Positions 4,944-41,849 are shown, counted from the first letter of the stretch. The stretch is 64,000 nt of DNA from an uncultured Clostridia bacterium (GCA_934120675.1 CAKOUU010000001.1:17926-81925), one strand, 5' to 3'. Program-made: numbers and translations. The notes: generated by a model not told the origin, from the letters alone.

Positions 4944-6461
4944 ATGGAAACAAAGGAAACAAAAAACGAAACAACCTTTAAACCTCTTGATGAAACAAAA
5001 CAAATCACTACAAATAAATCAGATGTATGGATAATTTTTGGAATTTTATGTACAATTTTCATATTAATTTCAATAATTATATTTTGCACATTTTCATTAG
5101 CAATTATACAAAGTACAACAATTGCAAAAGGAGTATATATAAAAGGAATTGATGTATCTGGGCTCACAAAAGAAGATGCAAAACAAAAAATTACAAGCTA
5201 TATAAGTTCTTCAATTCCAGAAGAAATAACATTAAAACATAACGATTTTGAAGCTTCACTTTCAACAACACAATTATCAATATATTTTAATACCAACGAA
5301 GCTGTTGATATGGCTTATAATATCGGAAAAAGTGGAAATATCATTCAAAAAAATTTAACAATAATAGAAACTCTTTTTTCTAATGTCAATATAGACCCTG
5401 GATTTTCTATTGATACTGACCAATTAAAAGCAGACCTACAGGATATTTCTAATAAATTACCTGATAAAGTAATTGAAAGTAGCTATTATATAGATGGCAA
5501 CAATCTGATACTAACCAAAGGTCAAGCTGGCCAAGTAATAAAAGTTGATGAAACCGCAAATACAATAATAACACAGGTTAATAACCTTAATATCCAGAAT
5601 AATTATATAGAATTAATTACTGAAAACGCTTATCCTAATGAACTAAATCTTGACTCAATATATAACGAAATACATAAAGATTCAGTTGATGCATATTATA
5701 CTCAAAATCCATTTGTTATACATCCAAGTGAAAACGGTGTAGATTTTGCAATTTCTTTAGACGAAGCAAAAAATTCATTAAACGAGTCACAAGACGAATG
5801 CGTAATTCCATTAAAAGTATTATACCCACGTGTAACAACAAATATGATAGGAACAGAAGCTTTTCCAGATTTATTGTCTGAGTTCTCAACAAAATATGCA
5901 GCAAGTAACAAAAATCGTACAACAAATTTAATGTTAGCAGCAAACAAAATCAATGGAACTGTTTTAATGCCTGGCGAAACTTTCTCTTATAATAAAGTCG
6001 TTGGTGCAAGAACAATTCAAGCTGGTTACAAAGAAGCTCCTATTTATGTATCAGGAAGAGTTGAAGATGGAATCGGTGGTGGAATCTGCCAAATAACTAC
6101 AACATTATATAATGCTGTAGTATATGCAAATTTAGATATTGTAGAAAGAAGTAACCATCAATTTGTACCATCTTATGCTGGTGCAAGTAGAGATGCAACC
6201 ATTGTATATGGTGCAATTGATTTTAAATTTAAAAATAATAGAGATTATCCTATAAAAATCACTTGCTCTGTTGCAAATGGAGTTGCAAATTTTAAAATTT
6301 TTGGTTTAAGATCTGATAATGATTACGAAGTTCAAATAACTTCAAGAATAACTGGGAAAACAGCTACCGCAATTTATTCAGAAGCTTACAAAACTTTAAA
6401 GAAAAATGGAAATGTTGTAAGTACGTCATTATTATCAAAAGACACTTACAAAAGACATTAG
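4944..6461 (+). CDS. VanW-family protein, membrane anchored
   Basis: The C-terminal GETFSYNKVVG...GGGICQITTTLYNAV motif is typical of the VanW domain. One N-terminal TM segment. The start at the ATG at 4944 follows GGAG. Confidence 0.8.
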   Translation: METKETKNETTFKPLDETKQITTNKSDVWIIFGILCTIFILISIIIFCTFSLAIIQSTTIAKGVYIKGIDVSGLTKEDAKQKITSYISSSIPEEITLKHNDFEASLSTTQLSIYFNTNEAVDMAYNIGKSGNIIQKNLTIIETLFSNVNIDPGFSIDTDQLKADLQDISNKLPDKVIESSYYIDGNNLILTKGQAGQVIKVDETANTIITQVNNLNIQNNYIELITENAYPNELNLDSIYNEIHKDSVDAYYTQNPFVIHPSENGVDFAISLDEAKNSLNESQDECVIPLKVLYPRVTTNMIGTEAFPDLLSEFSTKYAASNKNRTTNLMLAANKINGTVLMPGETFSYNKVVGARTIQAGYKEAPIYVSGRVEDGIGGGICQITTTLYNAVVYANLDIVERSNHQFVPSYAGASRDATIVYGAIDFKFKNNRDYPIKITCSVANGVANFKIFGLRSDNDYEVQITSRITGKTATAIYSEAYKTLKKNGNVVSTSLLSKDTYKRH

Positions 6462-6462
6462 A

Positions 6463-6494
6463 AAAAGAGGGATTTTAAGGAACATCCCCCTTTT
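6463..6494. terminator. Bidirectional terminator between VanW gene and ypeB
   Basis: AAAAGAGGGAT / ATCCCCCTTTT stem (10 of 11 bp) between convergent genes. Confidence 0.5.
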
Positions 6495-6500
6495 CCATTT

Positions 6501-7874
6501 TTACATAGTCAAAGTTCCATTAGGAGTATTTGTAATAATCAAAATATCCTCTTCTCTACCACTCTCTGCATTTACATATACCAAAAATTCCCTATCATCA
6601 ACTTTCCCTTTAAATTCATAACACAAAATTTCTGTTTGAAATTCTGTAGGAATTATAGCCAACCCTTCAGATTCAATTTCCAAATCTTTATTTAAGGATT
6701 TCTTTGCATTTTCCTTACTAATCTTAACATTAGAAATATCCCTTTGAGTATGATTATTCAAGTAACCTGTAGTTTCAATTCCAAGAATTTCGCCATTATC
6801 CAAAGCAACCTTAACCTTTATTAAATCAGAATATACAACAACATCACCTTGGCAATAAGCGTAATTTATTGTAACAATTCCATCTTGTTTCAAATAATAA
6901 GTTTCTTTCATATTATAAATTCCATGATTATTTAAAAAATCTTTGCCCTTTTGGTTTGCCTCATCTTGAGATATTAACTCAGCATTAACATTTCTGTTTG
7001 AATTCATATATACAATATGTCCACCTTTTTTGGAAATTGATATATTAATACTATCTTCTGAATTTGTTTTTATTGAAAAATTATATTCTGGTATTGTTGC
7101 ATTTTCTGAAAATCCTAAACTTTCAATACTTTGAACATTATCTTTCCCTATAAAATCTATTGCTTTTTGTTTTGCTGTTTCTTCATCAATATCATCACCT
7201 GTTAAGCCTTTTTTCTCGCCATTTGTTAGGTGCTCAGAAAAAGCACCATCATATATTAAACCTGAATATTGATGAAAATTTTCTTCTAAGTTGCTAAATC
7301 CATCCATAGAACTTGTACTTACTTGTTGAGCAAATGCCACATTTCCTTTATTAGTAAGTTCTCCCCATTTTATTCTACCAGAATTTATATCTTCAGATAA
7401 CTGATTTAAAGTATTTTCTAATTCAACACTATAGTTATGCAAATCTTTTAAATTTTTTAAATCTTCATCTGATAATTTTTCATTATAAATATTCTTTCTA
7501 GATAAAGAATAGCTATAATCACTAACTTGATTTAAAAACTTTTCAGTGTTTTCTAATTCTTGACTTTCAACCGGCAATTGTGAAAGATATGCCTGTGCCA
7601 AATTTGCCTCTCTCCATACATTTGTTAAAGTCTCTGCTCCATGTTCTGGAGTACTTGAAATTAATGATTTTGCTAAATATGTTTCAACATTCTGAACATA
7701 ATCAACAACTTGATAAAAAGCCATATTGTAAGTATTTTCAGATGCAGTTTTTGCCTCTTTATTATTATTTACAATCACAGCAATTAAGCTTCCTATAACA
7801 ACCACAAATACAATAATTGAAGCTATTATATATGCCTTATTAACTTGAATTTTTTTTATTTCTACCTTTTTCAT
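6501..7874 (-). CDS. ypeB: Germination protein YpeB (PepSY domains)
   Basis: N-terminal TM segment and a PepSY-like C-terminal half, immediately downstream of sleB as in Bacillus and Clostridia. The track ORF extends to 7919. The ATG at 7874 (MKKVEIKK) avoids overlap with sleB. Confidence 0.75.
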   Translation of the reverse strand: MKKVEIKKIQVNKAYIIASIIVFVVVIGSLIAVIVNNNKEAKTASENTYNMAFYQVVDYVQNVETYLAKSLISSTPEHGAETLTNVWREANLAQAYLSQLPVESQELENTEKFLNQVSDYSYSLSRKNIYNEKLSDEDLKNLKDLHNYSVELENTLNQLSEDINSGRIKWGELTNKGNVAFAQQVSTSSMDGFSNLEENFHQYSGLIYDGAFSEHLTNGEKKGLTGDDIDEETAKQKAIDFIGKDNVQSIESLGFSENATIPEYNFSIKTNSEDSINISISKKGGHIVYMNSNRNVNAELISQDEANQKGKDFLNNHGIYNMKETYYLKQDGIVTINYAYCQGDVVVYSDLIKVKVALDNGEILGIETTGYLNNHTQRDISNVKISKENAKKSLNKDLEIESEGLAIIPTEFQTEILCYEFKGKVDDREFLVYVNAESGREEDILIITNTPNGTLTM

Positions 7875-13037: not shown

Positions 13038-13160
13038 AAAATTTAATCCCTCTATAGAGAGTACTCCACATAAAGATTTTCTACTTATTGCTGCTTCCTT
13101 CCGGACCTGACAAGGTTCATAGGTCTCTATTGGATTACCCTCTATACAAAGATTAAATTT
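13038..13160 (-). ncRNA. ffs: Signal recognition particle RNA (small, 4.5S-like)
   Basis: The minus strand contains GTCAGGTCCGGAAGGAAGCAGC, the invariant SRP domain IV motif. It is enclosed by a long closing stem (AAATTTAATC...GATTAAATTT). The position upstream of dnaX is typical of Firmicutes. Confidence 0.85.
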
Positions 13161-14048: not shown

Positions 14049-14124
<76 letters not shown>

Positions 14125-34565: not shown

Positions 34566-35315
34566 TTATTTATTTTTTTTATTATATATTTTATAAATTT
34601 CCTCTGTATAATTTCCATCTTTTTTATAAATATATAAATCTTCCTTAACTTTCAAAAAAGGCTTTGCATTTTTTACACCTTTAATTAGCACCAATTTAGG
34701 TGATTCATTTATATGTGAACATACAAATCTTATTTCTTTTGGTTCAATTTTATATTGTCTCATATGTGAAATAATATCAACCAATCTTTCCGGCCTGTGA
34801 ACCATATAAAATTCTCCTTTATCTTTTAACAATTTATTAGATACTTTTATATAATCTTCTAACTTTGCTAATACCTCATGTCTTGAAATTAATTTTTTTT
34901 CTTCTTCGTTTACTATTCCTGTATTTTCTTTTTTATATGGTGGATTTGTAACTATAACATCAAAAGAATTTTTTTCATATATTTTATCCAAATTAATAAT
35001 ATTTTCATTTATTATTTCAAATTTATTTTCTAAATTATTTAATTTTGAACTTCTTTTTGCCATATCTGCGACTTCTTTTTGAACCTCTACCCCTATAATT
35101 TTTTCTAAATTTGTTTTTCCACATAATAAAATTGATATTATTCCTGTACCTGTTCCTAAATCTAATACTTTTGCATTTTTCTTTATATTTTTTGAAAAGT
35201 CTGATAACAATACTGCATCAATTCCAAAACAAAAGCCTTTTGTATTTTGTATTATTTTTAAACCTTTAAATTCCAAGTCATCTATTCTTTCATTCTCTTT
35301 TAATTCTATTTCCAT
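34566..35315 (-). CDS. SAM-dependent N6-adenine methyltransferase (tRNA1Val m6A37 TrmN6/YfiC-like)
   Basis: SAM motif VLDLGTGTGI and catalytic TNPPY. Confidence 0.75.
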   Translation of the reverse strand: MEIELKENERIDDLEFKGLKIIQNTKGFCFGIDAVLLSDFSKNIKKNAKVLDLGTGTGIISILLCGKTNLEKIIGVEVQKEVADMAKRSSKLNNLENKFEIINENIINLDKIYEKNSFDVIVTNPPYKKENTGIVNEEEKKLISRHEVLAKLEDYIKVSNKLLKDKGEFYMVHRPERLVDIISHMRQYKIEPKEIRFVCSHINESPKLVLIKGVKNAKPFLKVKEDLYIYKKDGNYTEEIYKIYNKKNK

Positions 35316-35425
35316 ATTTTTCTCTTTCTTTTTTATTTTATATTAAAATGTTACAACAATTTTAGATAAAAAACAAGTATTTATTATAATTTAATTTTTA
35401 CAAATTAGTATATATTTATTTACTA

Positions 35426-35454
35426 TTGACAATAAATAAATTTTATATTAATAT
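35426..35454 (+). promoter_or_regulatory. Sigma-A-type promoter for small ORF A
   Basis: TTGACA (35426-35431), a 17-nt spacer, then TAATAT (35449-35454). Confidence 0.55.
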
Positions 35455-35495
35455 TAAATCGCCGACTTGCTTAGTGACAGGAAGGAGGTTATCTT

Positions 35496-35564
35496 TTGAA
35501 ACCATTCACAAAATTGCTAGCATTATATATAGTTTACTTAATTGTAAAACATTTTGATGATTAG
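35496..35564 (+). CDS. 22-aa peptide A (candidate type I toxin-like peptide)
   Basis: TTG start 6 nt after GGAAGGAGGT. Peptide is MKPFTKLLALYIVYLIVKHFDD. A paralog of identical length is at 36876, and a terminator follows directly. Confidence 0.5.
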   Translation: MKPFTKLLALYIVYLIVKHFDD

Positions 35565-35569
35565 CATAA

Positions 35570-35641
35570 AAAAAGACTAGGATTTGTTTAGCGACACCTA
35601 GTCTTTTTTAATTATCTTTGAAACCATTTATTGCAATTGCT
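35570..35641 (-). ncRNA. Predicted convergent sRNA A (about 70 nt)
   Basis: It would run from the minus-strand promoter at 35648-35676 to terminator A. Its 5' part is antisense to a near-duplicate (35612-35642) of the peptide-A translation start region (35489-35519). Confidence 0.45.
35574..35604. terminator. Bidirectional terminator A
   Basis: AGACTAGG ... CCTAGTCT stem with an A-run upstream and a T-run downstream. Confidence 0.75.
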
Positions 35642-35647
35642 AAATAC

Positions 35648-35676
35648 ATATTAGCACATAATTTATTATATGTCAA
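35648..35676 (-). promoter_or_regulatory. Sigma-A-type promoter for sRNA A
   Basis: Minus strand: TTGACA (35676-35671), 17 nt, then TAATAT (35653-35648). Confidence 0.55.
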
Positions 35677-35771
35677 ATTTTTCAACTTATTCATCCAAAT
35701 ACATATTCACCATTTTTCCATTTATTTAATAATATAGTATAAATATTTTAATAAAAGAAAGAAGTGTTTCT

Positions 35772-36062
35772 ATGCCAACTTTATATAGATGTGAAAAAAA
35801 AAATAATAATACTTGCAAATGCCGTCTGCCTCCTCCTCCACACAAAATTTTAGCACCACCGCCATCACCTCCTCCAAAACCACCACCAAAAAAGCCATCT
35901 CCCCTTAAAAAGAAAAAACTTAATTTTAAAACTTGCAAAAAAAATACAATTAATTCTTTAAATGAAGTTGAACATTTTTTAAATGATTTTCAAGGTTTTT
36001 GGGATTATGTTAAATTATATAAAAATGTTTCAAATATTTTTAATAGAAAAAGAAAAGACTAG
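35772..36062 (+). CDS. Proline/lysine-rich small protein (96 aa)
   Basis: ORF MPTLYRCEKKNNNTCKCRLPPPPHKILAPPPSPPPKPPPKKPSPLKKKK... Its stop codon lies inside terminator B. The SD is weak. Confidence 0.45.
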   Translation: MPTLYRCEKKNNNTCKCRLPPPPHKILAPPPSPPPKPPPKKPSPLKKKKLNFKTCKKNTINSLNEVEHFLNDFQGFWDYVKLYKNVSNIFNRKRKD

Positions 36063-36125
36063 GATTGCTTTGGTAGGCTCCTAGTCTTTTTTGTTATTTT
36101 TTTGCACGATTATTTTTTAATTGCT
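36050..36125 (-). ncRNA. Predicted convergent sRNA B (about 75 nt)
   Basis: It would run from the promoter at 36132-36160 to terminator B. Its 5' end AGCAATT is shared with sRNA A. Confidence 0.4.
36056..36087. terminator. Bidirectional terminator B
   Basis: AGACTAGGA ... TCCTAGTCT stem with the same stem sequence as terminators A and C. Confidence 0.75.
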
Positions 36126-36131
36126 AAATAT

Positions 36132-36160
36132 ATATTAACACATACTTTACCATATGTCAA
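36132..36160 (-). promoter_or_regulatory. Sigma-A-type promoter for sRNA B
   Basis: Minus strand: TTGACA (36160-36155), 17 nt, then TAATAT (36137-36132). Confidence 0.5.
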
Positions 36161-36170
36161 ATTTTTAAAA

Positions 36171-36710
36171 CTATTTTCTCACATAAAACTCCTCAAAATC
36201 ACTAGATGCCTGACCATTAACCAAGAATTTAACCTTATTAACCTCATTTAACTCAGTAACAGTATTAACAATTGAATAAATTAAATTATTTTTAAGCATA
36301 CTATCATCTTTATTATAATTCAAAATCTCAGAAGAAAAATCCAAAGTTAAACATTCTTTATCTAATGAAACATTTAAAAGTTTAGTATTTTCAGGAATAA
36401 CAACTTTCAATTTATCATTTTTAGGACCAGAAATTAAAAGCTCAACCAAAGTATTATAAGGTGATTTTATTAAATCTTTTACATTTACAAGTCTTGCTTC
36501 TGGTTTTAAAAGCCCTGTTTCTTTATCTGCAAAATATAAGCTTACAATTGTTTCCCTTGACTGATCATCCGATATTTCTTCCTGTGGTATATATTCACGT
36601 TGAATTTCATTATTTTTCTTTTGTTTGACAATTTTAATTGCGAAATATCCTATAACTACAATTAAAATTACTGAAATTATAAATAAAATTAAAATCCTTT
36701 TATTTTTCAT
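36171..36710 (-). CDS. GerMN-domain (GerM-like) sporulation/germination lipoprotein-like protein
   Basis: TM anchor followed by VSLYFADKETGLLKPEARLV ... LLNVSLDKECLTLDFS ... VKFLVNGQ, typical of the GerMN domain. The ATG at 36710 follows GGGAGGA. Confidence 0.7.
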   Translation of the reverse strand: MKNKRILILFIISVILIVVIGYFAIKIVKQKKNNEIQREYIPQEEISDDQSRETIVSLYFADKETGLLKPEARLVNVKDLIKSPYNTLVELLISGPKNDKLKVVIPENTKLLNVSLDKECLTLDFSSEILNYNKDDSMLKNNLIYSIVNTVTELNEVNKVKFLVNGQASSDFEEFYVRK

Positions 36711-36804
36711 AGCGTCCTCCCTATTTTTAATATTTATACTTAATACTATTATTTGTTTGTCCAAAATATACTAAAAATTTTTAAGCTAAATATTTATTAT
36801 ATAG

Positions 36805-36833
36805 TTGACTTTTACAAATAAATATTATACTAT
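36805..36833 (+). promoter_or_regulatory. Sigma-A-type promoter for small ORF C
   Basis: TTGACT (36805-36810), 17 nt, then TACTAT (36828-36833). The predicted transcript starts at CCGACTT, as in copy A. Confidence 0.5.
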
Positions 36834-36875
36834 ATTCATACCGACTTACTCTAGTGGGTAGGAAGGAGGTACTAA

Positions 36876-36944
36876 GTGAAAGAACTACTAAAAGTGTTGA
36901 AACTTTATTTAATTTACTTAATTGTAAAGAACTTAAAGGATTAG
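36876..36944 (+). CDS. 22-aa peptide C (paralog of peptide A)
   Basis: GTG start 5 nt after GGAAGGAGGT. Peptide is MKELLKVLKLYLIYLIVKNLKD. It shares the YLIVK core and length with peptide A. Confidence 0.5.
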   Translation: MKELLKVLKLYLIYLIVKNLKD

Positions 36945-36949
36945 ACAAA

Positions 36950-37029
36950 AGAAAAAGACTAGGAAAAGTTTTCAGAGACTTCCTAGTCTTTTTTTGATAC
37001 TTCGTTTCAGAACTACTTTTTTGACGTCT
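36950..37029 (-). ncRNA. Predicted convergent sRNA C (about 80 nt)
   Basis: It would run from the promoter at 37036-37064 to terminator C. It contains AGUAGUUCU and AGUAUC, complementary to AGAACUACU and GGUACU around the GTG start of peptide C. Confidence 0.4.
36956..36989. terminator. Bidirectional terminator C
   Basis: AGACTAGGAA ... TTCCTAGTCT stem with A-run and T-run flanks. Confidence 0.75.
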
Positions 37030-37035
37030 GAATAT

Positions 37036-37064
37036 ATTATAACTCATATTTTATTATATGTCAA
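37036..37064 (-). promoter_or_regulatory. Sigma-A-type promoter for sRNA C
   Basis: Minus strand: TTGACA (37064-37059), 17 nt, then TATAAT (37041-37036). Confidence 0.55.
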
Positions 37065-37100
37065 ATAAAATTTTTTAGTCCTATTTCCATTTTTTTACAT

Positions 37101-37129
37101 TTGACAAATGGTCATTTTCCGTATAAAAT
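37101..37129 (+). promoter_or_regulatory. Promoter for the 1441-aa activase/dehydratase gene
   Basis: TTGACA (37101-37106), 17 nt, then TAAAAT (37124-37129). Confidence 0.45.
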
Positions 37130-37224
37130 TAGGGTGTATAAATTATTTAAAAAACCTCATAGCCCTAACAAAAAACAGTAATTTATACATGGGATGTTTA
37201 AACGAGCGAGAGGAGAAATGAATT

Positions 37225-40200
37225 ATGGAAAAAGTTTTACATGTAGGATTAGACGTAGGCTCAACAACCGTAAAAATAATAGTAATGGATGAAAATCAAA
37301 ACACAATATATAAAGACTATCAAAGACACTTTTCAGACACGAAAAACACAGTATGTAATGTACTAGAAAACTTAGCAAAAATGTATCCAGAAAATACATT
37401 TACAATAGCACTAACAGGGTCTGGAGCAATGTCTGCAAGCAAGTTCTTAGGCGTAGAATTCATACAAGAAGTTGTATCATGCAAAAGGTCTGTTGAAAAA
37501 TATATTCCACAAACTGATGTAGTAATCGAACTTGGTGGAGAAGATGCAAAAATCATATATTTTGGAAAATCAATTGAACAAAGAATGAACGGAACTTGTG
37601 CCGGCGGAACTGGAGCATTCCTAGATCAAATGGCATCACTTTTACACACAGATACTGCAGGTTTAAATGAATTAGCAAAAGACTACAAAACAATATACCC
37701 AATTGCATCTAGATGCGGTGTTTTCGCAAAAACAGATATACAACCTTTAATAAATGAAGGTGCAGCAAAAGAAGACATTGCAGCATCAATTTTCCAAGCA
37801 GTTGTTAATCAAACAATTAGCGGACTAGCCTGTGGAAGACCAATTAGAGGGAATGTAGCATTTTTAGGTGGCCCATTAAGTTACTTACCAGAACTAAGAA
37901 AAAGATTTATAGAAACACTTAATTTAACACCTGAAGAAGTAATTGTGCCTGAAGAAGCTCATTTATTAGTAGCTAAAGGGGCAGCCCTTGATTCCCTAAA
38001 TACAAAGGCAATAACTGTTGAAGAATTGAAACAAAAAATAGAAAATTTAAGAAATTCACAAGATAATACAACACATCCAATTGAACCTTTATTCAAAAAT
38101 AAAGAAGATTACGAAAAATTTAAAGAAAGACACGACAAAGCAAAAGTTGCAAGAACTGAACTTTCTACATATGAAGGTGACTGTTACATTGGAATTGACG
38201 CAGGTTCAACAACTACAAAATTGGTATTAATTGATAAAGATGGAAACTTGCTATATTCATTATATGGTAGCAATGAGGGTAACCCTCTAAAAAGTGTTAT
38301 GAATATGCTTAAAAATTTATATGAAGTCCTACCAGAGAAAGCGATCCTTAGGTATAGTGGAGTTACAGGATATGGTGAAAAACTAATTCAAACAGCTCTA
38401 AATGTTGATTTAAATGAAATAGAAACAATTGCACATTACACTGCTGCAAAACAATTTGAACCTGATGTAACTGCAATAATCGATATTGGTGGACAAGATA
38501 TGAAATACATCAAAATGAAAAATGGTGCAATAGACAATATTATGCTAAATGAAGCATGTTCATCTGGATGTGGTTCATTTATAGAAACATTTGCAAAGAG
38601 CCTAAACTTAGAAATTTCACAATTTGTTAAAGAGGCAATTGAAGCCAAAAGACCTGTTGATTTGGGTTCAAGATGTACAGTATTTATGAACTCTAAAATA
38701 AAACAAGCTCAAAAAGAAGGCTATACAGTAGGAGATATTTCAAGTGGACTTTCATATTCAGTTATCAAAAATGCTATTCAAAAAGTTATGAAAGTTAGGG
38801 ATACGGCCACTTTGGGAGACCACATTGTAGTTCAAGGCGGAACATTCTACAATGATGCAGTTTTAAGAGCATTTGAAAAAATAGTTGGAAAAGATGTTGT
38901 AAGACCAGACATTGCAGGTTTAATGGGTGCATATGGAATGGCTTTACTTTCTAAAGAACAATATGAATCAAACCTAGATATGGAATACACATCAACTATT
39001 TTAAAAGCAGATGAATTAGATAAATTAGAAATTAAAGTAACTCATGCAAGATGTAACAATTGTGAAAATCATTGTAAATTGACAATAAATAAATTTAGCA
39101 ATGGTTCAATACATGTTTCTGGTAACCGTTGCGAAAAAGGTGCCGGTATTACTACAAATAAAAAGAATTTACCAAACTTAGTACAATACAAATATCAAAG
39201 AATATTTGATTATAAACCACTTGAAGAACAATACGCAACTAGAGGAACTATAGGAATTCCAAGAGTTTTAAATATGTATGAAGATTATCCATTCTGGTTC
39301 ACATTCCTTACAAGCCTAGGCTTTAGGGTAATAATATCAGATAAAAGTACAAGAAAAACATATGAAAAAGGTATGGAATCAATGCCTTCTGAATCAGTAT
39401 GTTATCCAGCAAAAATCTCTCATGGACATATTGAAAATTTAATTGAAAAAGGAATAAAAACTATTTTCTACCCTTGTATGCCTTATTCAAGAAAAGAATA
39501 TGAAAAAGCAGACAACCACTACAATTGTCCAATAGTAATTTCATATTCAGAAGTACTAAAAAATAATGTTGAAGATTTAAAAACACATAATATAAAATTC
39601 ATGAATCCATTCTTACCATTTGAAACTAAAAATCTAGTTAAAAAGATAATGGAATTAGATGAATTCAAAGAATATAACTTTACTAAAAAAGAATTACTAG
39701 AAGCCGCAGAAAAGGCAGAAGCAGAATATCAAAAATGTAAAAAGGATATACGTGACAAAGGTTCTGAAACCGTAAGATATATTGAAGAAAACAACCTAAG
39801 AGGAATTGTTTTAGCAGGAAGACCATATCACATCGACCCAGAAATAAACCATGGTATAGATACTTTAATTACATCATTAGGACTATGTGTTCTAACAGAA
39901 GACAGCGTATCTGACAAAACAGAAGCAAAACGTCCAATAAGAGTTGTTGACCAATGGGTATTCCACGCAAGACTTTACGCAGCAGCAGACTTCGTTGGTA
40001 AACACGATAATCTAGAACTAGTACAATTAAATTCATTTGGATGTGGTGTTGACGCAGTAACAACAGACCAAGTTGAAGAAATTTTATCAAGTTATGATAA
40101 AATGTACACACTAATAAAAATAGATGAAGTTAATAACTTAGGAGCTGTAAGAATTCGTATTCGTTCACTTCTAGCAAGTATGAATAAACGTATGGCAAAA

Positions 40201-41601: not shown

Positions 41602-41630
41602 TTGACATATAATAAAATATGTAGTATACT
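41602..41630 (+). promoter_or_regulatory. Sigma-A-type promoter for sRNA D
   Basis: TTGACA (41602-41607), 17 nt, then TATACT (41625-41630). The flanking ATTGACATATAATAAAATATG closely matches the sRNA A and sRNA C promoters. Confidence 0.55.
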
Positions 41631-41636
41631 ACAAGT

Positions 41637-41712
41637 AGCTTAAGCAAAATATAAAAAATTCTTAATGTCTTTCATATAATAAAAAGAACAGGATGGCGGT
41701 CCTGTTCTTTTT
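41637..41712 (+). ncRNA. Predicted convergent sRNA D (about 75 nt)
   Basis: It would run from the promoter at 41602 to terminator D. CUUAAUGUCUUUCAU (41661-41675) can form a 15-bp duplex with one G-U pair against AUGAAGGACAUUAAG, the start codon region of peptide D. Confidence 0.5.
41685..41708. terminator. Bidirectional terminator D
   Basis: AGAACAGGA tggcgg TCCTGTTCT with A-run and T-run flanks. Confidence 0.75.
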
Positions 41713-41717
41713 AAACT

Positions 41718-41789
41718 TCAATCACTTTCCAAAAACTCTAGAAGTTTTAATATTAAAATGATTTTTAGTAGTTCCTTAATGTCCTTCAT
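41718..41789 (-). CDS. 23-aa peptide D (related to peptides A and C)
   Basis: ATG 6 nt after GAAAGGAGGTGA. Peptide is MKDIKELLKIILILKLLEFLESD. Its promoter is TTGTAA (41846-41841), 17 nt, TATAAT (41823-41818). A terminator follows directly. Confidence 0.5.
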   Translation of the reverse strand: MKDIKELLKIILILKLLEFLESD

Positions 41790-41849
41790 TCGTTCACCTC
41801 CTTTCGAAGGCAAACCAATTATATAATAAATATTTACTTATTACAACTA

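Follow-up and report, generated by a model that had tools for sequence, protein, structure and literature searches.

Probable par-like type I toxin-antitoxin modules with a candidate new toxin family in the chromosome of an uncultured Clostridia bacterium

What is specified by short elements that recur in the chromosome of a Clostridia bacterium and in which a tiny open reading frame (ORF) faces a convergent small RNA (sRNA) gene? Such elements, referred to here as modules A, B, C and D, were analysed in a stretch of 64,000 nucleotides from an uncultured Clostridia bacterium (GCA_934120675.1 CAKOUU010000001.1:17926-81925; the whole stretch is hereafter called the window). The modules had remained unannotated because their ORFs were too short. 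An earlier sequence-only reading of the window had proposed a repeated small-peptide gene with a convergent sRNA in a type I toxin-antitoxin-like layout, and the comparative evidence supported this core proposal. Based on all analyses, the modules were considered to be probably chromosomal type I toxin-antitoxin modules of a par-like kind with a new toxin family. That the convergent sRNA controls the start of peptide translation by antisense pairing appeared very likely, as judged from the cognate-specific, co-varying complementarity of the two RNAs, and translation of the ORF was held with equally high confidence. Toxicity of the peptide, to which an asymmetric decay of the two genes and analogy to known loci pointed, was regarded as reasonably likely. 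That the predicted promoters are transcribed, that translation is repressed and that the peptide is toxic and acts on the membrane is what we infer from these data.

Three modules in the window were complete, namely A (35426-35676), C (36805-37064) and D (41602-41846, in the opposite orientation), and one was partial, namely B (36048-36160), which consisted of a hairpin and an sRNA gene only. A and C were close paralogues, while D was inverted with respect to both and its hairpin stem differed from theirs. Hence, from the three copies proposed within 1.7 kb, A and C stood as complete and B was found to have no peptide; the fourth copy, placed at 41.6 kb, was recovered as module D with its different hairpin and an ATG-started peptide of 23 amino acids. 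In A and C, direct reading and scans located each proposed element at its position: the promoters, the CCGACTT transcript start, the Shine-Dalgarno (SD) sequence, the 22-codon ORFs with TTG or GTG starts, the hairpins and the minus-strand promoters. The features of the complete modules are as follows, with UTR standing for untranslated region and mRNA for messenger RNA.

35426-35454, plus strand: predicted mRNA promoter of A, TTGACA(35426)-17-TAATAT(35454) (direct reading and promoter scan)
35461-35495, plus strand: predicted 5' UTR of A with the SD sequence GGAAGGAGGT at 35480-35489 (reading and folding)
35496-35564, plus strand: 22-codon ORF of A with a TTG start, MKPFTKLLALYIVYLIVKHFDD, putative toxin (translation)
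35568-35609, bidirectional: intrinsic terminator hairpin of A, comprising an A-tract, AGACTAGG(35574)...CCTAGTCT(35597) and a T-tract (reading and folding)
35566-35644, minus strand: antisense sRNA of A, predicted to be ~79 nt (RNAduplex)
35648-35676, minus strand: predicted sRNA promoter of A, TTGACA(35676)-17-TAATAT(35648) (reading and promoter scan)
36805-36833, plus strand: predicted mRNA promoter of C, TTGACT(36805)-17-TACTAT(36833) (reading and promoter scan)
36840-36875, plus strand: predicted 5' UTR of C with a 5' hairpin and the SD sequence GGAAGGAGGT at 36861-36870 (reading and folding)
36876-36944, plus strand: 22-codon ORF of C with a GTG start, MKELLKVLKLYLIYLIVKNLKD, putative toxin (translation)
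36952-36995, bidirectional: terminator hairpin of C, arms at 36956/36982 (reading and folding)
36948-37031, minus strand: antisense sRNA of C, predicted to be ~84 nt (RNAduplex)
37036-37064, minus strand: predicted sRNA promoter of C, TTGACA(37064)-17-TATAAT(37036), a 12/12 match (promoter scan)
41602-41630, plus strand: predicted sRNA promoter of D, TTGACA(41602)-17-TATACT(41630) (reading and promoter scan)
41637-41712, plus strand: antisense sRNA of D, predicted to be ~76 nt (RNAduplex)
41681-41712, bidirectional: terminator hairpin of D, AGAACAGGA...TCCTGTTCT (reading and folding)
41718-41789, minus strand: 23-codon ORF of D with an ATG start, MKDIKELLKIILILKLLEFLESD, putative toxin (translation)
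41790-41846, minus strand: predicted mRNA promoter of D, TTGTAA-17-TATAAT (41846-41818), and 5' UTR (promoter scan and folding)

The CCGACTT motif lay downstream of the plus-strand promoter at 35462 in A and at 36841 in C. In A, C and D, near-consensus -35/-10 pairs occupied opposite strands in a convergent arrangement; these promoters are sequence predictions, and in the promoter scan those of the sRNAs matched 10-12 of 12 consensus positions vs 9-10 of 12 for those of the mRNAs. Each of the three modules had a single hairpin with a flanking A-tract and T-tract 6-9 nt past the stop codon, at which the mRNA and the sRNA would both end. A simple terminator scanner reported no sites at the modules, likely because the loops of A-C exceeded its 3-8 nt limit and the stem of D was lengthened by A/T tracts. 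The hairpins were recovered by RNA folding, with z-scores of -2.6 to -5.0.

The modules were also recovered by homology. A DNA profile was built for nhmmer from 21 modules of other genomes, the window sequence being left out, and was searched against the 64-kb window. Full-length matches were obtained for C (36836-37066, E 6e-42), D (41823-41599, E 3e-38) and A (35461-35680, E 3e-36). Module B (36042-36164, E 8e-16) matched at profile positions 114-230 only, which corresponded to the terminator and the sRNA gene. Apart from the reverse-strand echoes that these four palindromic hairpins produced, no further match within the 64 kb reached the inclusion threshold. Conservation in the family profile was highest at the sRNA promoter.

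The relation between the two RNAs of a module was then given by a repeat. On the mRNA strand, the ~35 nt directly past each terminator formed a degenerate direct repeat of the SD/start-codon region: TTATCTTTTGAAACCATT...AATTGCTA vs TTATCTTTGAAACCATT...AATTGCTA in A, a block around AGAACTACT in C, and ATGAAGGACATTAAGGAA vs ATGAAAGACATTAAGAA in D. Since this repeat is transcribed in the opposite direction in the sRNA, the unstructured 5' part of the latter would be antisense to the region where translation of its own mRNA starts. The 5' 35 nt of the A sRNA (35610-35644) was complementary to -10..+24 of the peptide start region, the 5' part of the C sRNA (36996-37031) to -9..+14, and the stretch 41659-41677 of the D sRNA to -1..+17. 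The sequence-only reading had rightly noticed the complementarity of the two RNAs at the terminator, but it missed the direct repeat over the SD and start codon, where the decisive pairing is predicted. A compensatory change was observed in C: the mRNA had GAA-CTA in the window and GAA-TTA in the relative L018 (L numbers designate loci and sequences compared with the window), and the sRNA read AGTAGTTC and AGTAATTC, respectively (TAG to TAA).

The pairing was evaluated with RNAduplex on the parts outside the terminators, with mononucleotide shuffles (n=200) as controls. This was a check that had been suggested along with the original proposal, and its outcome was favorable: the cognate duplexes reached -20 to -28 kcal/mol and all covered the SD/start region. 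The A duplex had an energy of -28.3 kcal/mol (z -6.5, 0/200 shuffles) and consisted of a 19-bp and a 9-bp helix over -10..+24; the values were -20.2 kcal/mol (z -3.1) for C and -21.7 kcal/mol (z -4.4, 0/200 shuffles) for D. All 9 cross-pairs among A, C and D stayed at background (z -1.0 to +0.9). The same was seen in a set of 23 distinct modules, in which the cognate duplex averaged -25.1 kcal/mol vs -12.3 (standard deviation 5.0) for non-cognate ones and always lay over about -10..+25; wherever a non-cognate sRNA ranked better than the cognate one, it came from a near-identical module of the same subfamily. Additionally, cognate z-scores of -4.5 to -8.4 were obtained for 12 distinct modules of the toxin-anchored metagenome scan described below.

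In the predicted fold of each sRNA, the 5' tail was open and the terminator hairpin came after it. A complementarity between the terminator loop of sRNA A and the 5' UTR of mRNA A was also considered and was dropped, as it was not conserved in other modules. A YUNR motif occurred in the terminator loops of A (UUAG) and C (UUCA) and was missing from D; a motif of this length is not informative, and the YUNR U-turn loop is not universal among par homologues (PMC7472228).

A second element of control was predicted at the 5' end of the mRNA, where transcription start sites were assumed from the -10 boxes for folding. In all subtypes the 5' end folded into a hairpin, with a CCUUU(U/C) tract paired to a purine tract that contained or abutted the SD. 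In the D-type modules and in L016, L019, L028 and L043 the SD core was fully paired, with a probability of about 0.9-1.0 vs 0.4-0.6 in shuffles. In D itself, the hairpin GUUUGCCUUC-GAAA-GGAGGUGAAC buried the SD (pairing probability 1.00 vs 0.44 in shuffles). The 5' hairpin of A and C covered mainly the upstream purines, and only the 5'-terminal CC paired with the GG of the SD. Over the family, the mean SD pairing probability was 0.73 vs 0.50 in shuffles.

It was also observed that the predicted 5' ends of nearly all sRNAs carried perfect palindromes. A G/C-containing palindrome of 6-10 nt was present in 88% of 26 distinct starts vs 11% of random 20-nt control windows, the forms including GCTTAAGC, GCAATTGC, GCATATGC, (T)GACGTC(A), CAACGTTG and TGACGTCA. 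The palindromes lay at 35636-35643, 37022-37027 and 41638-41645 in the window and at the same place in L012-L053 and L096; their symmetry was kept while the sequence differed between subtypes, and the D-type palindrome fell outside the predicted mRNA duplex. Possible roles are sRNA dimerisation, 5'-end protection or a DNA-level operator. The palindrome may point to dimerisation or an extra regulatory layer beyond the par model as summarised in PMC7472228.

How far the design extends was investigated by scanning GTDB, at one genome for each species, for the sRNA promoter pattern, which gave 42 loci. Nearly all belonged to metagenome-assembled genomes (MAGs) of gut 'uncultured Clostridium sp.' or 'Clostridia bacterium', including Clostridium sp. 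CAG:389, sp. 28_17, UMGS1423, UMGS1516 and UMGS1673, and a minority were promoter look-alikes before other genes. The full design of promoter, ~40-50 nt 5' tail, terminator and opposite-strand ORF was present in ~30 loci. These ORFs had 21-26 codons, a strong SD and a stop 3-10 nt before the hairpin. The peptide subtypes included MKELLKVLKLYLIYLIVKNLKD (C-type), MKPFTKLLALYIVYLIVKHFDD (A-type), MKDIKELLKIILILKLLEFLESD (D-type), MHDYIELLKLYLIYLIIKHLK, MKDLLDLLKLILIYYIIKYLSK, MNLLRTLIKILVLVILYLIIIDDQD and MGNFIRLLVLLLIYLILDKFDNE. Five more modules, detected as profile matches in the flanks of other hits with the promoter pattern unused, were complete.

Further, the ORFs were evolving as coding sequences. 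In the intact copies every length difference was in frame (21-26 amino acids) and the SD and its spacing were maintained, while the start codons of orthologues alternated among GTG, ATG and TTG, as they did within the C group. Ratios of nonsynonymous to synonymous differences (pN/pS), obtained from Nei-Gojobori counts summed over pairs that are phylogenetically non-independent and come from tiny ORFs, so that the result is qualitative, were 0.20 for the C group, 0.20 for D, 0.28 for the MHD/MND group and 0.35 for A (orthologues in L028, L047 and L057-L132). For codons 10 to the end, most of which are beyond the main stretch paired with the sRNA, the values were 0.24, 0.06, 0.12 and 0.36 in the same order. 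In this qualitative sense the peptides appear to be under purifying selection, a clear argument against a purely non-coding element. The comparison with relatives that had been recommended was thus carried out and found the frame preserved in intact copies. Broken frames in relatives, which had been named in advance as a sign of a non-coding element, did occur (L030, L031, L025, L051) and were a minority; since pN/pS in the intact copies was well below 1, the broken copies were read as decay of the toxin gene.

The peptides began with MK[DEP] or MN/MH-D and ended in tails that included KNLKD, HFDD, LESD and DDQD. Their grand average of hydropathy was 0.6-0.7 in the window and 0.1-1.4 over the family, in agreement with the small (<60 amino acids), hydrophobic peptides of type I systems in general, and the hydrophobic moments were low (0.09-0.27). 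Hence, from the earlier description 'amphipathic or hydrophobic', hydrophobic was retained and strongly amphipathic was not. The peptides lay outside named families, as had been suspected: no match was found in Pfam, NCBIfam or the PDB. An exact look-up of the peptides in a collection of 15 billion proteins returned nothing, and the peptide strings were not found in the searched literature or in the supplements of the small-protein preprint of Sberro et al., a search that T1TAdb lay outside. At the RNA level, a search of the whole window gave no Rfam family at its gathering score in the modules. Over 35300-37250, matches at E<=10 were only the chance-level snoR31, STnc390, ctRNA_p42d and RalA, far below gathering, and the Fst/RNA II antitoxin family was absent even among these weak matches.

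A divergent relative was noticed in L037 (4918-5179), where a 29-amino-acid peptide, MSSFDLIWRLIVLLLLSNNKDDESQNTQD, had its own terminator and that of the sRNA was separate. The two RNAs would not overlap there, and the 5' part of the sRNA was still complementary to the start region (GTGCATTTATGAGTTCATTCGAC vs GTGCATTTGAGTCATTCGAC). An sRNA of the L037 type without a toxin was present in L046 (3844-3902). As a separate observation, the string of 29 nt that makes up the sRNA promoter with its spacer (TTGACATATAATAAAATATGnnnTATAAT) was also met before a tRNA gene and before unrelated genes in other taxa. The sequences concerned were L015, L021, L022, L035, L044 and L048 (~6440-6547, minus strand), and the IMG/VR sequences L054-L056 carried the string with no module. 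The string may be a strong generic promoter form in AT-rich genomes.

The two genes of a module did not decay alike. At least eight apparently independent loci kept the sRNA gene beside a lost or broken toxin gene, namely L012, L014, L025, L030, L031, L046, L051 and module B of the window. In L030 the toxin was frameshifted relative to its paralogue L043 of the same MAG and the sRNA gene was intact; L031 had lost the SD and start codon; L025 retained codons for LIYLIVKNLGD only; L051 had a remnant, KLLEFLEDN, beside the patatin gene, and L012 was without any toxin remnant. The UTR and ORF were cleanly deleted at site C of L014, and L046 was devoid of the toxin that L037 has. The converse was sought in metagenome contigs by a scan anchored on the toxin (pattern GGAGG-N40-70-RTTTAYYTAATHRTAAAR), which detected at least 23 small ORFs. 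Among the matches listed were 19 family peptides, and a complete terminator and sRNA gene accompanied 19/19 of them. Thus, in the sample examined, no toxin without an sRNA gene was seen among the matches listed, and sRNA genes without a toxin were frequent. Loss of toxins with retention of sRNA genes is the pattern expected if the unrepressed peptide is harmful.

A case of such retention in the window was module B, which adjoins a neighbouring gene.

35772-36062, plus strand: conserved 96-amino-acid Pro/Lys-rich ORF with its stop inside hairpin B, a neighbour and no family peptide (translation)
36048-36160, minus strand: orphan sRNA gene B with its predicted promoter at 36132-36160, the predicted sRNA from ~36128 to 36048 and the hairpin at 36050-36092 (nhmmer)

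The hairpin arms of B were at 36056/36080 and the toxin part was missing. The 96-amino-acid ORF (MPTLYRCEKK...PPPPHKILAPPPSPPPKPPPKK...FQGFWDYVKLYKNVSNIFNRKRKD) belonged to a 90% cluster of 70 members from gut metagenomes and matched no Pfam or NCBIfam family. In L047, L050 and L034 it ended in ...NRKNH and was followed at site B by an intact module, whose toxin read MKDLLALL... in L034 and MKDLLDLLKLILIYYIIKYLSK in the other two. The window has lost this toxin part, and its ORF ended in ...NRKRKD inside the hairpin. The C-terminus of the ORF varied by lineage (NRKNH, NRKKY or NRKRKD), which is explained at least in part by deletion of the neighbouring toxin module, after which the ORF runs on into the terminator hairpin. 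By this comparison of sequences, module B is an orphan antitoxin (sRNA) gene remaining after toxin deletion. A fossil toxin at the end of the 96-amino-acid ORF ('DYVKLYKNVSNIFNRKRKD' vs 'DYIELLKLYLIYLIIKHLK') was rejected, given that the family profile aligned to B from the terminator onward only; the idea was also ruled out by the relatives, in which a whole toxin module, deleted in the window lineage, lay downstream of the ORF. Targeting of the 96-amino-acid mRNA by sRNA B was rejected likewise, with a duplex at background (RNAduplex z 0), and an action of sRNA B in trans on mRNA A had a weak duplex (-11.9 kcal/mol, z -1.2).

The modules occupied a core chromosomal neighbourhood in an AT-rich region (window G+C 27%). 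The gene order was abrB, rsmI, a yabB-like methyltransferase gene, module A, the 96-amino-acid Pro-rich ORF, module B, a GerM-like gene on the minus strand, module C, a gene for a 1441-amino-acid BcrAD/DUF2229 activase, module D and a patatin-like gene. The window was 99.97% identical to a contig from a Hadza gut metagenome (L001) and ~96% identical to the GTDB representatives L034 ('Clostridium sp. 28_17') and L018 (an uncultured Clostridium MAG). The module sites were fixed on the chromosome, and presence varied among close relatives. Site A was full in the window and L047 and absent from L002 and L004. Site C was full in the window and L018, had its toxin deleted in L014 and was empty in L002 and L047, where the intergenic region was otherwise collinear. 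Site D was full in most genomes, with the toxin deleted in L012 and L051. By reading, the 'empty' sites A and C seemed to keep a fragment of the sRNA -35 promoter region, which would suggest that ancestral modules were lost by deletion rather than gained by insertion. A mobile-element origin was rejected: blastn gave no match in PLSDB plasmids or INPHARED phages, and three IMG/VR promoter hits carried no module. Having no plasmid or phage match fits spread by lineage-specific duplication rather than horizontal transfer, the view taken of type I loci in PMC2887945.

Other observations were made in the same neighbourhood. In L003 and others, the intergenic region corresponding to site A, between the methyltransferase gene and the 96-amino-acid ORF, held a 226-amino-acid gene (L003 1960-2860, also in L005-L011) of no Pfam family, with a GC-rich terminator-like hairpin, GGTCTCAAAAGGACC...GCCATTCAAACGAATGGC, directly past its 3' end; it may be an inserted accessory or defence gene. 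Ahead of the activase gene, at 37101-37224 on the plus strand, lay a promoter matching 11/12 of the consensus (TTGACA-17-TAAAAT) and a ~95-nt leader with an inverted repeat (37120-37145 / 37179-37204). This region was kept in relatives without module C and may be a regulatory leader. Rfam recognised a small signal recognition particle RNA and three tRNAs elsewhere in the window, at 13050-13146, 14052-14124 and 60514-60764 (minus strand).

We proposed the following mechanism. A sigma-A-type promoter would yield an mRNA of ~130-155 nt on which a very strong SD precedes an ORF of 22-23 codons; the encoded peptide is hydrophobic and charged at both ends. A convergent, near-consensus promoter ~40 nt past the shared bidirectional terminator would yield an sRNA of ~75-85 nt. 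The two RNAs would be complementary in two places, the terminator stem-loops and the direct repeat, through which the sRNA 5' part is antisense to about -10..+25 around the start. Pairing at the start region is expected to block ribosome binding and would probably create a substrate for RNase III. The 5' mRNA hairpin would act as a second brake by burying the SD, completely in D and partially in A and C. When the sRNA falls, the peptide would be made and the membrane harmed.

Several results weigh against this interpretation and should be set beside it. The pairing probability of the SD in A, 0.73 vs 0.59 in shuffles, was weak evidence of sequestration, and in C it was 0.09. The pN/pS argument carries the qualification already given with its values, and the toxin-anchored set consisted mostly of close relatives of A and C. 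In the peptides, apolar residues followed one another without a break over 8-12 positions only, vs 15-19 in Fst and PepA1, which is short for a classical membrane-spanning helix and leaves the mode of harm uncertain; the peptides may act non-canonically, by oligomeric or interfacial membrane damage or on a protein target. The 20 family peptides had no Pfam match at E<=10 and no NCBIfam match, their profile had none in the PDB, and hhalign gave a probability of 1% to Fst of pAD1 and 0.2% to PepA1. Finally, the orphan sRNA B was conserved across a whole lineage without A and C (L002-L011), so sRNA B may have its own role.

These points bear differently on the other explanations. The RNA evidence speaks for antisense-controlled translation, not for toxicity, and it would also suit a non-toxic small membrane or regulatory protein, perhaps a stress- or sporulation-related micropeptide, whose sRNA could be lost without harm. 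The short apolar core of 8-12 residues and the location at fixed chromosomal sites beside genes of the core (abrB-rsmI, GerM, activase, patatin) rather than in plasmids or phages agree with such a micropeptide. However, the peptide gene was repeatedly and apparently independently destroyed with the sRNA kept, the reverse was not seen in the sample examined, several paralogues per genome each had a private sRNA specificity, repression was two-layered in prediction, and presence varied among close relatives. Each of these traits is what toxin-antitoxin loci typically show and would be unusual in a housekeeping micropeptide, and the non-toxic explanation, although the main rival, was judged unlikely. 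The decay pattern counts also against secreted, antisense-gated amphipathic peptides with cytolytic or antimicrobial action, similar to phenol-soluble modulins or leaderless bacteriocins, as frequent pseudogenisation with sRNA retention is unexpected for a bacteriocin. Phenol-soluble modulins are similar in size to the present peptides, which are likewise short, Leu/Ile/Lys-rich, helix-forming sequences with no signal peptide; nevertheless, no export or immunity genes stood beside the four window modules or the related loci inspected, and the low hydrophobic moments (0.09-0.27) mean that the peptides are not strongly amphipathic, making a secreted peptide quite improbable.

A purely non-coding repeat, either a terminator and promoter cassette or a family of trans-acting sRNAs with an accidental 22-codon ORF, would account for the broken frames in L030, L031, L025 and L051 and for the persistence of B and its orthologues without a peptide. 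It was scarcely credible in view of pN/pS values of 0.06-0.36 that included codons outside the RNA-RNA duplex, of length changes that were all in frame in intact copies (21-26 amino acids), and of a strong SD that was always there at the correct spacing before a start codon kept through GTG/ATG/TTG switches. The par-like toxin-antitoxin interpretation was therefore preferred. A wider claim, that the modules represent an undescribed and abundant family of 21-26-amino-acid type I toxins in uncultured human- and animal-gut Clostridia, with par-like RNA control reinvented or retained around an Fst-unrelated peptide, was considered possible, if rather doubtful.

The experiments on type I systems in Clostridia are essentially those on C. 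difficile, and few Fst-like sequences have been predicted elsewhere (PMC6563280, PMC2887945). To these the present work adds a family with clear limits and no fewer than five subtypes of peptide, found in uncultured Clostridia of the gut, among them Clostridium sp. 28_17, Clostridium sp. CAG:389 and UMGS MAGs. It contains dozens of natural "compensatory mutation experiments", in which every paralogue has a private sRNA-mRNA pairing code, and hence offers a clean comparative model for the evolution of par-like regulation and paralogue specificity. It also supplies a ready DNA profile for the annotation of these loci in metagenomes and a clear example of toxin loss with antitoxin retention. The very short peptides could serve as counter-selection or kill-switch parts in gut Firmicutes. 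The concept of type I systems is unchanged by the family.

Which known system do the modules resemble most? The Ibs peptides of Escherichia coli are 18-19 amino acids long, and the Ibs/Sib loci share with the modules comparably tiny toxic peptides, multiple copies and sRNAs that discriminate their own targets. They differ in that the Sib RNAs are antisense to the ibs ORF over its full length (PMC8594479), in their Gram-negative host and in having no sequence relation to the modules. The type I loci of C. difficile (CD2517.1-RCd8 and relatives) belong to the same class, Clostridia, and are likewise composed of convergent toxin and antitoxin genes with toxins of 34-59 amino acids that were missed by annotation (PMC6563280). 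By their descriptions they are set apart by Lys-rich tails, by the location of many of them in prophages or beside CRISPR arrays and by extensively overlapping RNAs, whereas the present modules have peptides of 21-26 amino acids, core chromosomal sites and a par-like RNA logic. A few Fst-like sequences have also been predicted in C. bolteae and C. asparagiforme (PMC6563280).

The loci txpA/RatA and bsrG/SR4 of Bacillus subtilis, which the sequence-only reading had taken as models, are similar in being Gram-positive, chromosomal and convergent with the sRNA at the 3' side of the toxin. In those systems the antisense RNA and the 3' part of the ORF overlap, and it is in this overlap that the two RNAs interact (PMC8594479). 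Here the overlap was confined to the ~40-nt terminator, starting 3-10 nt past the stop, and the main predicted contact was at the mRNA 5' end, so that only the convergent 3' arrangement is common and the models were replaced. Antisense RNAs encoded at the 3' end without ORF overlap and interacting outside the overlap are described only for Fst/RNA II and SprA1/SprA1as (PMC8594479). As predicted for the present sRNAs, SprA1as of Staphylococcus aureus is encoded at the 3' end and represses through a non-overlapping 5' domain at the initiation region (PMC8594479); its toxin, PepA1, differs by an apolar run of 19 residues and has no sequence similarity to the peptides found here.

In loci related to par, convergent promoters are combined with a bidirectional intrinsic terminator, the initiation region is sequestered by the direct repeats DRa/DRb, and intramolecular structures do the same for the SD and the 5' end; some of the loci also have a U-turn motif in a loop (PMC7472228). 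The modules resembled par of the Enterococcus faecalis plasmid pAD1 (Fst/RNA I/RNA II) in having convergent promoters with one bidirectional intrinsic terminator common to both RNAs, an antisense RNA overlapping the 3' terminator only and leaving the ORF free, and predicted direct-repeat helices over the SD and start codon, of which the 19-bp and 9-bp helices of A with their internal loop were like DRa/DRb. They also shared a small sRNA, ~75-85 nt here, with RNA II of pAD1 being ~40 nt (PMC7472228) and the S. pneumoniae homologue 65-75 nt (PMC2887945). Burial of the SD by a 5' stem-loop, as in par, was predicted clearly for D, weakly for A and hardly at all for C. The ends of the peptides were similar as well, the N-terminus being charged (MK[DE]) and the tail at the C-terminus acidic or charged, and the copies were chromosomal, multiple and lineage-specific, as in the chromosomal relatives of par.

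The difference lay in the peptides. Fst-type toxins are recognised by PXXXG(C) within a hydrophobic domain, by a conserved Trp and by a tail that is charged (PMC7472228, PMC2887945). None of the 20 aligned peptides contained PXXXG, prolines occurring only at position 3 of two MKP peptides with no Gly four residues further on, and no conserved Trp followed the helix, the sole Trp being N-terminal in the divergent L037 peptide. The peptides were also shorter, 21-26 amino acids vs 33 for Fst of pAD1 and 30 for PepA1, and the hosts were uncultured gut Clostridia. As convergent promoters, a common terminator and direct repeats over the start region were predicted at the RNA level and the motifs of the Fst peptide were absent, the loci would work like par and cannot be filed as Fst-family. 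Since the sRNA 5' part is antisense to the SD and start region, the closest designs among known systems are par/Fst-RNA II and SprA1/SprA1as.

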